Shown piece by piece: positions 55,921 through 57,395 of a stretch of 64,000 nucleotides of DNA. The notes under the pieces were generated by a model, which was not told where the DNA came from, ran no database searches, and saw only the letters and a program-made list of their open reading frames with translations. Each line of letters opens with the position of its first letter. The first letter of the stretch is position 1. Source of the DNA: an uncultured archaeon. GTDB lineage: Archaea > Thermoproteota > Nitrososphaeria > Nitrososphaerales > Gagatemarchaeaceae. The DNA lies in assembly GCA_963817525.1 (NCBI GenBank), contig CAWFOU010000007.1:736001-800000 (forward strand). Direction: 5' to 3'. Both the position numbers and the translations under genes were made by a program.

Positions 55921-56120
55921 AAACCGTCACATTAGCGGCGAGGGAGCCTAAATAGCCAACCCAACAATTCTGTCGTGGACCCGCCCGATTTCACGCGGCT
56001 TAGCTCGGAAACGGCAGAGGTAGTCGGAGCGTCGACCATGACAAAGGCCCCCTCCTCGTCGACTGCGTTCTGCTTTCCGATGGCGTAAATAGCTTCGTCT
56101 CTCGCAGTTGTGTCTCTCAG

Positions 56121-56537
56121 CTAGTTTTCGGGCTCGTCAATTCGTTCGACCGTACCATCGAAGCCTATTGAGACTGAAGAGCGCGGGAGCTTGCCAACGC
56201 CTTTGTCCACGAGCCACCTCGAGTACTTGCTGGAGTGGTGCATGCTGCGAACGTGGCGCCTGAAAGTCTCAATCGACCTGGCCGAATGGCCGCACGTGCA
56301 AATGTTGAAACCATCGGGCATCTCGAGCGTCAACACTCCCATCATGATGCTGCAGGGAAGACATCTGACCTTGACTCCCTTTGAGTGAGACGGGGAATAT
56401 ATTATCATGCCCACGTCGAGGATCCTCTGGCAGGACCAGCATCTCATCACGCCGCCGTGTCGATGGATCATAGCGGAGGAGATGCGATAGCAGTGAGCTT
56501 CCTTAGGAATGCTCGCTGTGAAGAGAACCTCCTTCAT
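56121..56537 (-). CDS. Hypothetical zinc-finger protein
   Basis: CWSC...CLPC and CTC...FRRHVRSMH motifs; atypical codon usage. Confidence 0.5.
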   Translation of the reverse strand: MKEVLFTASIPKEAHCYRISSAMIHRHGGVMRCWSCQRILDVGMIIYSPSHSKGVKVRCLPCSIMMGVLTLEMPDGFNICTCGHSARSIETFRRHVRSMHHSSKYSRWLVDKGVGKLPRSSVSIGFDGTVERIDEPEN

Positions 56538-56768
56538 TCAGAACATCACACGAGATTTTCCACCGGTCGGCTCTGTTAGGACGTTGCCGGCGCCTGATCC
56601 ATCGAACTCTACCACGAGGGAACATCAGAAGATTTGCATTAGAAACCTCTGGTGCAAGCATCTATCAGCGTGTTCGCAGGATAGACTCTGCCCCGCTCTC
56701 TGCCCTCGGACACATCTCCTAACTATCGCCACCTGAACCAGTTTACGGGTGCCTCGCTCTAGCAAGAT

Positions 56769-56785
56769 TGGTAGCGAGGGGTGGA
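56769..56785 (-). repeat. Duplicate of the tRNA-iMet 3' exon including CCA
   Basis: Minus strand TCCACCCCTCGCTACCA; 56772-56785 identical to 57275-57288. Confidence 0.85.
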
Positions 56786-56806
56786 TAAATATCATATCCA
56801 CTTATT

Positions 56807-57274
56807 TTGCAGTTGGGCACCAGAGAAGCTTGGTTCGCGGGCCTGATAGACGGGGAGGGTTGTTTCACTATCGGAATCTCGCACCAACACAAGAGAGCCC
56901 TAAAATTCAGCCTGATTTTTTCGATTTCAATGAAGAGTGGAGATTGGCAAAACGGCGCACAAGAATTGCTCAGGTTCCATGATATTCCCTTTCACACCCG
57001 GTGCCGGAAGAATCAATTCGAAATAACCGTGAGCGGCCATAAATCTGTGAAGAAATTAATTGCCGTTACCAAACGGTATCTGGTAGTGAAGAAACCAGTT
57101 GCCGAAGTCCTGGCCAGCTTTCCCGTCGCCCCTGCCAGGAATAGGTTCACCGGAGTCGATAAGCGTTATCTCCGAATTGTCTGTGAGAAAGTAGACCAGG
57201 TGAGATTCTTGAACAAGGGAAAAAACAGGAAGCACAAGTGGGATGGCAGACGAATCTGGATGTTTTATGATTAA
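56807..57274 (+). CDS. Free-standing single-motif LAGLIDADG homing endonuclease
   Basis: AWFAGLIDGEGCFTI, ...FSISMK..., YLVVKK; lower GC than host genes. Confidence 0.88.
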   Translation: MQLGTREAWFAGLIDGEGCFTIGISHQHKRALKFSLIFSISMKSGDWQNGAQELLRFHDIPFHTRCRKNQFEITVSGHKSVKKLIAVTKRYLVVKKPVAEVLASFPVAPARNRFTGVDKRYLRIVCEKVDQVRFLNKGKNRKHKWDGRRIWMFYD

Positions 57275-57395
57275 TAGCGAGGGGTGGAGTTTCAGAGGGA
57301 TATCCCTCCTTTGAACCACCGCTCTGCGGGTTATGAGCCCGCCGGGATAACCTTGCCCCTTCGGTCGGGAGAAGGTCTGGCTTCCCCACCTCGCT
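57275..57395 (-). tRNA. Initiator tRNA-Met(CAT) with two non-canonical introns (57352-57376 D-loop; 57289-57309 T-loop)
   Basis: A1-U72 acceptor AGCGAGG/CCTCGCT, anticodon arm GCGGG-CTCATAA-CCCGC; removing the 25-nt and 21-nt BHB-type introns gives a 75-nt cloverleaf with T loop TTCAAAT. Confidence 0.92.

Follow-up and report, generated by a model that had tools for sequence, protein, structure and literature searches.

A free-standing LAGLIDADG endonuclease cassette that probably replaces the 3′ end of an archaeal initiator tRNA gene

Why should a LAGLIDADG endonuclease gene lie tail to tail against an initiator tRNA gene, and why should an exact copy of the last 14 nt of that tRNA lie on its far side? 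The question is raised by a locus in a 64,000-nt window (the whole stretch of DNA analyzed here; positions 736,001 to 800,000 of contig CAWFOU010000007.1, assembly GCA_963817525.1), part of a 1.28-Mb contig in a metagenome-assembled genome (MAG) of 2.82 Mb (95% complete, 8.75% contamination); the genomes compared with it are MAGs throughout. We call this genome G000, related genomes and individual loci by G and L numbers, and the endonuclease studied here HEG-B. The host is a Nitrososphaerales soil archaeon, Gagatemarchaeaceae-like; HEG-B homologues bear Nitrososphaerales or Thaumarchaeota names, and one related locus comes from ‘Candidatus Gagatemarchaeum’. A preliminary description of the window had read the arrangement as an element that entered the tRNA gene at an intron position and delivered a new, intron-bearing 3′ end. 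We posit, with a probability of about 0.7, that the locus carries a ~500-bp free-standing homing-endonuclease cassette, which sits at the 3′ end of the tRNA gene, replaces that end and leaves the old end behind as a relic. The intron is an old and widespread feature of the tRNA, as a rule not brought by HEG-B; such cassettes nevertheless probably reshuffle tRNA gene ends and introns.

The tRNA gene, at 57275..57395 on the minus strand with its anticodon CAT at 57333-57335, is missed both by ARAGORN and by an Rfam scan of the window. It was recognized through trial excisions, folding and its relatives: among 6771 distinct trials in which one D-loop and one T-loop segment were removed, ARAGORN called tRNA-Met(cat) in 674 and other isotypes in none, and the precursor folds into a cloverleaf with two intron hairpins. 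An A1:U72 pair and three G-C pairs at the foot of the anticodon stem read as initiator marks, and we take this two-intron tRNA-Met to be the initiator tRNA (tRNA-iMet). The first intron (21 nt; 57289..57309, minus strand) interrupts the T loop between positions 59 and 60; by eye, the T stem, a 3-nt bulge, a 4-bp TTCA/TGAA helix, a second 3-nt bulge and a 5-bp hairpin make up a canonical bulge-helix-bulge (BHB) motif. The gene is recognizable by its 5′ pattern in 50 of 61 relatives. In their 33 T-loop introns, the 4-bp helix is fully paired in 27 and paired at three or more positions in 32, and the core hairpin is closed at both ends in 30 by differing, compensatory sequences. Because helix and hairpin are kept across the 33 despite these differences, the T-loop insert behaves as a real intron is expected to; it fits a canonical archaeal BHB tRNA intron, the assignment being made partly by eye and splicing being predicted from the fold. 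A D-loop intron of 25 nt, with borders ambiguous by 2 nt, lies within 57352..57378 (minus strand); it is revealed by relatives with and without it and by a hairpin in the fold, and is absent from G012, G017 and others and common to G006 and G009. Beyond the T-loop intron, the functional 3′ exon (57275..57288, minus strand; position 60 to the discriminator A73), delimited by the repeat and the fold, is the proximal copy of the repeat.

Convergent with this tRNA lies HEG-B (56813..57274, plus strand), a single-motif LAGLIDADG gene of 153 codons plus TAA, identified through Pfam, its homologues and a structural model; an in-frame TTG stands upstream of its open reading frame (ORF) at 56807. The stop codon TAA (57272-57274) directly abuts tRNA base 57275, as had been reported. 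The protein matches Pfam LAGLIDADG_1 (PF00961; E=1.7e-7, 32.5 bits against a cut-off of 23.1) and has 50 homologues in the protein collection, and its ‘GLIDGEGC’ motif, the acidic residue included, is invariant across 26 aligned sequences (G10, L11, D13, G14, E15, G16). The AlphaFold model (pLDDT 92, pTM 0.85) has the element order H-E-E-H-E-E-H, that is, the alpha-beta-beta-alpha-beta-beta-alpha core of the LAGLIDADG fold, and a Foldseek search of the PDB returned 148 matches at E<=0.001, headed by I-CreI (TM 0.74), I-CvuI, I-MsoI, I-TnaI and I-Vdi141I, as far as is known all of them single-motif homodimeric enzymes. A two-copy model of HEG-B reached a score of 0.63, the best of three controls scoring 0.00, and places the LAGLIDADG helix at the interface; its runs agree in at least 91% of contacts, with a partner pLDDT of at least 86, and the mark used for calibration is passed by 20 of 30 proteins solved as pairs and by 1 of 23 solved as single chains. 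Because I-CreI dimers have already been solved and may be remembered by the predictor, the model is read as a likeness to I-CreI-type dimers and is no proof of binding. By motif and fold, HEG-B is an I-CreI-like single-motif LAGLIDADG protein, which would be expected to work as a homodimer. Its dN/dS values in the 4 of 10 pairs with estimable dS (0.084, 0.135, 0.088 and 0.040; the other pairs are saturated) are low, and purifying selection has therefore kept the gene working. A TATA-like box, TAAATA (56786..56791, plus strand), lies 27 nt upstream of the start codon at 56813 and recurs beside the relic in other loci, so the HEG-B mRNA would be leaderless or nearly so. Viral contigs scanned for HEG-B yielded only distant LAGLIDADG relatives, with ~100-aa matches at most 34% identical and higher identity confined to short partial segments.

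The repeat that brackets the gene is exact at 56772-56785 and 57275-57288 and equals the 3′ exon that follows the 21-nt intron, as the preliminary description held; it has no other copy in the window at up to 2 mismatches, and it extends to a direct repeat of 20 nt at 90% identity (56766-56785 / 57269-57288). The distal copy is followed by an encoded CCA (56769-56771, read on the minus strand) and the proximal one by TTA, so that a CCA on the distal copy only, likewise claimed before, is real. We call the distal copy with its CCA relic 1 (56769..56785, minus strand) and interpret it as the displaced native 3′ exon; in G000 the inserted and native ends are identical at 14 of 14 positions. Taken alone the repeat is weak evidence, as shuffled sequence matches the 14-mer at up to 2 mismatches 0.82 times on average and at least twice in 20 of 100 shuffles; a chance origin is rejected because the same layout recurs in 20 further high-GC loci. 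Relic 1 and its trailer together match the end and trailer of the G020 tRNA at 21 of 21 nt. Between the repeats, ORF and Pfam scans found a family match for the endonuclease ORF alone and no integrase, which upholds the earlier statement to this effect.

Other constructions of the locus were tried and set aside. The 503 bp could form one large tRNA intron joined to the distal exon, except that TATTTA stands where TGAA would be needed before relic 1 and the ORF is antisense; with the TGAA tail missing upstream, no BHB is possible at relic 1, as judged by eye. Nor is HEG-B encoded in the manner of the known BHB-intron endonucleases, since its ORF lies outside the 21-nt intron and on the strand opposite to the tRNA. 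The inverted repeat that had been described at the distal copy does exist (7 + 7 nt around the TATA box, 56782..56788 / 56796..56802); it is specific to G000, being absent at the homologous positions of the other loci inspected, and a functional hairpin was rejected for this lack of conservation. The base beside the distal copy that had seemed to fit an intron-less T loop loses its meaning as part of the conserved TATTTA box, and entry at the intron position cannot be told from insertion after A73, owing to the repeat itself. Logan contigs cover both junctions without differences (X1-5 and X3-14 at the ORF/tRNA joint, X3-11 and X5-19 at the relic/ORF start); these runs may include the source sample, so their support is not independent. 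One low-depth contig in run X1 matches from 57272 on and is preceded by 64 unrelated letters, which may indicate a second allele at the tRNA 3′ end, a weak hint from a single contig. An RNA run matches no more of the locus than 36 nt in the conserved anticodon arm, and these at 4 differences.

What lifts the arrangement above a curiosity is its recurrence. HEG-B loci from 5 of 61 related genomes, 6 from the genome collection and about 20 from metagenomes reduce to 24 distinct ones after deduplication; among the relatives, HEG-B is found in G000, G001, G006 and G032, with a broken copy in G005, and 4 of the 23 genomes of the genus, G000 included, carry it. The earlier proposal to search homologues for tRNA adjacency had a uniform outcome: all 24 ORFs end tail to tail on the 3′ end of a tRNA-Met with A1:U72. 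In 21 of them the stop codon is a TAG made by the complement of the tRNA’s terminal CTA; G000 and G006 have their own abutting TAA, and the frame in L028 extends 60 nt into the tRNA. All 20 high-GC loci that could be assessed have a relic (19 recognized by pattern, L090 by eye; L104 is cut by the contig end); the 3 low-GC loci, which have the TATA box and a HEG-B of 41-47% identity, have none. Each relic copies the last 12-14 nt of its tRNA and adjoins a TATTTA-like box or a one-base variant of it, and 16 of the 19 pattern-found loci have 41-44 nt between relic and ORF start; L090 has a one-base insertion. The compact, integrase-less unit of endonuclease, promoter and 3′ exon that the preliminary description had sketched thus stands in 24 loci, whereas the delivery of an intron that it attached to this unit is only partly supported. 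Integrase-bearing islands, which it had named as a sign of a deletion remnant, appeared at none of the homologous loci, a statement that does not include an integrase scan of the flanks of all 24.

The relics also record earlier states of the locus. Their trailers resemble those of tRNAs in endonuclease-free relatives, and this resemblance, together with the 21/21 match to G020, identifies the distal copy as the displaced native tRNA end. At about half of the 20 loci, relic and working copy disagree in the T-stem part: L024, L025, L027, L093, L094 and L101 have CCTCC in the tRNA and CCACC in the relic, and L097 has the reverse. Variable conversion tracts between alleles would produce such differences in both directions. 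The last 9 nt of the relic are near-invariant (18 of 20 loci); the T-stem part and the spacer decay. Two peculiarities of individual loci may be added. In L107, the tRNA-iMet beside a decayed HEG-B is recognizable only from the anticodon loop on, with unrelated sequence upstream, and is possibly a truncated or split tRNA gene. Some relatives have a small Cys-rich ORF (~35 aa) between a neighboring HD-domain gene and the tRNA-iMet promoter (L092, 421-533; L004, ~1200-1306, tRNA orientation) that G000 lacks.

HEG-B does not appear to follow its hosts. On a 37-row host tree built from the single neighboring HD-domain gene (176 aa), its presence requires at least 9 changes, and broken copies occur in G005, L103 (1 internal stop) and L107. 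Identity to the G000 copy plateaus at 56-60%, and that of the adjacent HD protein ranges over 55-87%; between G006 and G000 the HD proteins are 82% and the HEG-B proteins 56% identical. On the HD tree, three host clades (X, Y and Z) each contribute members to both of two well-supported endonuclease lineages, B and C. Approximately unbiased (AU) tests on the endonuclease alignment, in which rows of uncertain host placement were not constrained, rejected X as a group at p=4e-7, Y at 3e-4 and Z at 2e-6; H1, which joins G006 with G000, was not rejected (0.28). Because it is patchy, has pseudogenes, evolves under purifying selection and conflicts with the host-gene tree, HEG-B behaves as a mobile element.

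These observations suggest the following cycle. HEG-B, convergent with the tRNA and transcribed from its own TATA box into a leaderless or nearly leaderless mRNA, would act as a homodimeric I-CreI-like enzyme that cuts endonuclease-free tRNA-iMet alleles in the T-arm/acceptor 3′ region. Its target could lie in the T arm, a natural palindrome that would suit a homodimer; a center further 3′ is equally possible. With a cassette-bearing allele as the repair template, the cassette would then be copied along with the neighboring 3′ portion of the tRNA; the tRNA would stay functional, and the recipient’s old 3′ end would be shifted downstream as a dead relic of 13-14 nt. Both junctions, and probably also the T-loop BHB intron, would split the target and so render the carrier immune; that the intron protects the carrier’s own gene from the endonuclease is plausible. 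The steps of cleavage, target site, double-strand-break-repair homing and intron immunity are those that we infer.

Several points weigh against this proposal. Cleavage, target site and transfer are deduced rather than observed, and the reads show no presence/absence polymorphism, offering only thin contigs and no joints. The strong purifying selection and the fixed position would fit a domesticated gene as well, and the near-invariance of the last 9 nt suggests a relic that is functional or repeatedly refreshed rather than dead. The host tree is that of one neighboring 176-aa gene, the groups tested were named after both trees had been seen, and the two endonuclease lineages could be old paralogues with differential loss in place of transfer. 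Finally, the immunity step has no independent statistical support (5 pairs, given below), and L109 and L114 carry a related endonuclease beside a tRNA-Gln with an intact, intron-less T loop.

That tRNA ends are replaced is seen most directly where cassettes are stacked or where another endonuclease family is involved. L092 has, in order, the tRNA, a two-motif LAGLIDADG_3 gene that we call HEG-A (Pfam PF14528), a 3′-exon copy with an intron tail, HEG-B and a decayed third copy. In G018, a working tRNA with a unique T stem and neither T-stem nor T-loop intron is followed by HEG-A, then by a relic that comprises a T arm with both introns and the 3′ exon, and then by ~50 nt of the HEG-B 3′ end. 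G029 likewise has HEG-A, behind it a relic that runs from the anticodon stem through the T-loop intron to a terminal CCA, and in front of it a working tRNA without that intron; HEG-A adjoins tRNA-iMet in these 2 of the 61 relatives. In G020, a 1.3-kb insert (~1614-2920 of L049, tRNA orientation) lies between the working end, which has no intron, and a relic that retains both introns and is 95.8% identical to the G000 T arm over 48 nt. The insert contains ORFs of 294 aa and 154 aa without a Pfam family, which could be another kind of cassette cargo. In these three loci one sees directly that the tRNA end is exchanged when a cassette arrives and that the new end need not have the introns of the old one; in all three, the change is the loss of an intron from the functional gene.

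Could the exchange have run the other way at the locus studied here, with the cassette entering an intron-less tRNA at 59/60 and delivering the intron, so that the wide distribution of the intron would be the footprint of many invasions from which the endonuclease was later lost by deletion between the repeats? The association that this requires is there at first sight. The intron is present on the tRNA at all 23 loci where HEG-B sits on a complete gene, and in L092 HEG-B abuts the 3′-exon copy with its intron tail, which makes 24 of 24 HEG-B loci; among relatives without the endonuclease the figure is 28 of 45 (p=2.5e-4 by a naive Fisher test, kinship ignored). Within the closest host clade the intron is polymorphic (present in G000, G006, G008, G012, G017, G022, L089 and L090; absent from G009, G014, G018 and G020), as is HEG-B, and it is nearly identical wherever it occurs; G009 shares the D-loop intron of G000 and lacks both the T-loop intron and the endonuclease. 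An inter-repeat deletion would yield exactly the G012-type allele, and the 21/21 match of relic 1 and its trailer is to an intron-less end. Relatives are not independent, however: across the only 5 independent pairs, the intron goes in the same direction as HEG-B in 1.4 on average and in the opposite direction never, a result that is not significant by the sign test. Of the 50 relatives with a recognizable tRNA-iMet, 33 have the T-loop intron and 17 lack it, and 28 of the 33 are without HEG-B, including G012, G017 and G022, whose 21-nt intron is identical; the preliminary description had itself held that the same intron in relatives lacking the endonuclease would speak against its proposal. 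The intron recurs in 10 of 16 other families of the order with a recognized tRNA-iMet, where HEG-B was not found with this query. Being older and wider than the endonuclease, it need not come from it. Moreover, leaving aside a second copy in G052, none of the 28 endonuclease-free intron-bearing loci has a relic or a HEG-B stump within ~1.1-1.3 kb, and G018, G029 and G020 go the opposite way, with intron-bearing ends displaced by intron-less ones. We therefore consider intron delivery of this kind improbable, and the cassette is unlikely as a general source of the 59/60 intron.

A second alternative holds that HEG-B is a domesticated, vertically inherited host gene of the LAGLIDADG fold (a regulator, a maturase-like protein or a tRNA factor) and that the repeat is the fossil of one ancient insertion. 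The dN/dS range of 0.04-0.14 and junctions that are identical across HEG-B divergence down to 41% identity are what such a gene would display, and the conserved distal 9 nt of the relic, which lie beside the promoter, could be an operator for autoregulation, an arrangement familiar from phage I-TevI. A host gene would hardly be confined to 5 of 61 relatives, though, be gained or lost at least 9 times, exist in three broken copies and conflict with three host clades in AU tests; nor does a single fossil insertion account for the shuffling of T-stem variants between relic and functional copy, or for the overrunning of HEG-B by other cassettes in G018 and L092. Domestication is, on this balance, rather improbable. 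Less credible still is a deletion remnant of an integrase-type element of the SSV/pNOB8 kind, with the 14-nt repeats as attL and attR and the endonuclease as leftover cargo: direct repeats from T loop to 3′ end are the classic signature of tRNA-targeting integrases, which the 14-nt repeat matches, and intron gain via an intron-bearing attP has been proposed (both in PMC3293823), and G000 does have 817 bp more of foreign DNA beyond relic 1, but 20 of 20 assessable high-GC intervals hold only a ~460-nt ORF and a promoter, with the stop falling in or directly beside the tRNA end and the TATA box bordering the relic, a single layout on which independent deletions would not converge, neither the interval nor the ORF of the 817-bp segment matches an integrase family, and different LAGLIDADG families show the same end duplication here and at other tRNAs.

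The 817 bp deserve a description of their own. In G012 and G022 the tRNA runs straight into a DUF190 gene, and the G000 locus is 1.35 kb longer. Beyond the cassette, the excess consists of a low-GC segment (55955..56771; GC 0.46-0.56 against ~0.64) that is absent from G012 and G022 and that ends, on the DUF190 side, in a second TATTTA box (55949-55954) and a degenerate relic 2 (55933-55948; together 55933..55954, minus strand), recognized by eye and without statistics, 12 nt from the DUF190 stop codon and at the site of the tRNA end in G012 and G022. The segment probably represents a gutted cassette of older date. An origin as decayed HEG-A or HEG-B was rejected, as tblastn and a hidden Markov model from A1, with two HEG-A queries, found no similarity to either. 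The segment holds a Cys-rich ORF of 138 aa, ORF138 (56121..56537, minus strand). Metagenomes contain 7 homologues of it that are 68-96% identical, the 60 relatives contain none, and its matches to zinc-ribbon families all stay below threshold. A comparable case is L079 (G052), where the last 15 nt of tRNA-iMet occur again, without a mismatch, 313 nt downstream of the gene and with no endonuclease ORF between, possibly again a gutted cassette.

Nor is the initiator gene the only tRNA gene of G000 with such a neighbor. Family searches of this genome gave 11 LAGLIDADG matches in short open frames (<300 aa), and 9 of the 11 abut tRNA genes: 8 lie within 75 bp of an ARAGORN call (C7:814219-814985, C7:1045105-1045733, C7:848077-848755, C7:269484-270449, C7:400756-401604, C1:676465-677358, C1:82448-83371 and C1:706071-706856, all outside the window), and the ninth is HEG-B. 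Of the other two, inspection by eye suggests an intein for one, and nothing that resembles a T arm lies within 260 nt of the second. Exact duplicates of a tRNA end of at least 11 nt bracket 4 of the 9, namely 14 nt of the 3′ end of tRNA-iMet (HEG-B), 15 nt of the 5′ end of tRNA-Ala (C7:814 kb), 15 + 12 nt of tRNA-Val (C1:676 kb) and 11 nt of the 5′ end of tRNA-Glu (C1:82 kb). It is conceivable, though short of probable, that in this group of soil archaea several LAGLIDADG families serve as tRNA 5′- or 3′-end replacement cassettes that bring in a foreign end, with or without BHB introns, in exchange for the old one, which stays behind as a relic, and that target-splitting introns such as 59/60 are kept for the immunity that they confer. 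The tRNA genes of G000 are rich in non-canonical introns; ARAGORN finds 41 tRNAs, the initiator not among them, and several of its calls have implausible giant introns. Such calls (for example a tRNA-Glu whose intron would measure 838 nt) seem to join a relic to a working gene. About 20 further LAGLIDADG_3 matches occur in long frames (400-1800 aa) and are most likely inteins, which makes the genome unusually LAGLIDADG-rich.

More distant relatives of HEG-B sit behind tRNA-Gln genes. In L109/L110 (~764-1370 of L109), a 41%-identical relative lies co-directionally behind tRNA-Gln(CTG) and is followed by a T-arm/acceptor relic of tRNA-Gln whose T stem differs and whose T loop contains an insertion of 9 nt; this may be a scar at the target of the enzyme or a disruption of it. 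In L113, a 30%-identical LAGLIDADG ORF stands among at least 7 densely packed tRNA genes, an arrangement reminiscent of the tRNA arrays of phages or bacteria.

How non-canonical BHB introns of archaeal tRNAs are gained, lost and moved is an open question, to which published ideas have brought intron ‘transposition’ or integrase-borne elements. The loci described here offer a system in which intron protection can be tested, with a defined enzyme family, natural alleles with and without intron or cassette, relics that record earlier states, and loci at which the displaced and the working end do not have the same introns. If the broader picture of several endonuclease families at work is true, it would give, at the level of DNA, a concrete means by which non-canonical tRNA introns are gained, lost and shuffled, and it would directly strengthen the view that introns shield tRNA genes from mobile elements. 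On the practical side, standard tRNA finders miss genes of this kind, and relics can give rise to false ‘giant-intron’ calls.

In the literature searched, no paper was found that describes LAGLIDADG genes beside archaeal tRNA genes, or cassettes at the ends of these; coverage was partial, with supplements outside it. The available portion of a paper on Gagatemarchaeaceae genomes (PMC10640624) mentions neither introns nor LAGLIDADG by term search, and ‘homing endonuclease’ does not occur in the corresponding portion of a survey of thaumarchaeal mobile elements. Introns have been proposed to protect target sites against integrating elements, viruses among them, which would be a possible reason for their retention (Randau and Soll, as cited in PMC3293823 and PMC4090602); in the latter review, the word ‘homing’ does not occur. 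A paper on group I introns of archaea (PMC6125680) deals with rRNA genes.

Among individual enzymes, I-CreI is the closest in kind, with ~150 aa, one motif, a TM score of 0.74 and a dimer through the motif helix in the model; HEG-B differs in its ~21% sequence identity to I-CreI and in not being encoded by an intron. I-Vdi141I (PDB 3e54; Foldseek rank 47) shares the fold and the setting of a stable-RNA gene with BHB introns, but enzymes of its type are encoded inside an rRNA intron on the RNA strand, whereas HEG-B is read from the opposite strand and is contained neither in the 21-nt intron nor in the tRNA. Free-standing endonucleases of phages adjoin their targets and co-convert flanking markers, and in ‘collaborative homing’ such an enzyme works with an ORF-less intron that interrupts its target. 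HEG-B resembles them in adjoining its presumed target and in the immunity that a target-interrupting intron could give; the phage systems differ in using GIY-YIG or HNH enzymes and group I introns, and we know of no end duplication described for them. A link between an endonuclease and a tRNA gene cluster is also on record, for T4 SegB; PMC13096335 covers part of this phage material.

Two systems come closer to end replacement itself. For a tRNA-Thr of Caldiarchaeum subterraneum, Sugahara et al. 2012 (PMC3293823) propose that a recombinase-bearing element replaced part of the gene with the gain of an intron; a mobile element at a tRNA gene, a direct repeat of the end and a reconstituted tRNA that differs in introns from the displaced fragment are all shared with HEG-B loci. 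That element, by contrast, measures 1.8 kb, carries its recombinase and uses site-specific recombination at a tRNA 5′ fragment; the HEG-B cassette carries only a LAGLIDADG gene and no recombinase, and for this reason double-strand-break repair is expected. The nearest parallel is with the mobile ORFs (mORFs) of fungal mitochondria, in which a new 3′ end for the host gene moves together with an endonuclease gene and the native end is left downstream of both, the cases given in PMC3630166 being Allomyces macrogynus atp6 (as cited there) and Glomus atp6, atp9, cox2 and nad3. There too the endonuclease ORF (LAGLIDADG or GIY-YIG) lies right behind the host gene, the inserted end is joined to the gene body and the native end is displaced, and the two ends differ, which points to transfer (same source); at HEG-B loci, T stems differ in about half of 20. 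The mORF host is an organellar protein gene and the HEG-B host a chromosomal archaeal tRNA gene, HEG-B sits on the opposite strand with its own promoter, and the piece that it replaces is only 13-14 nt (longer for the two-motif family), in ends that come with or without BHB introns. HEG-B would thus extend the replacement-end principle of mobile ORFs to archaeal chromosomes and to RNA genes.

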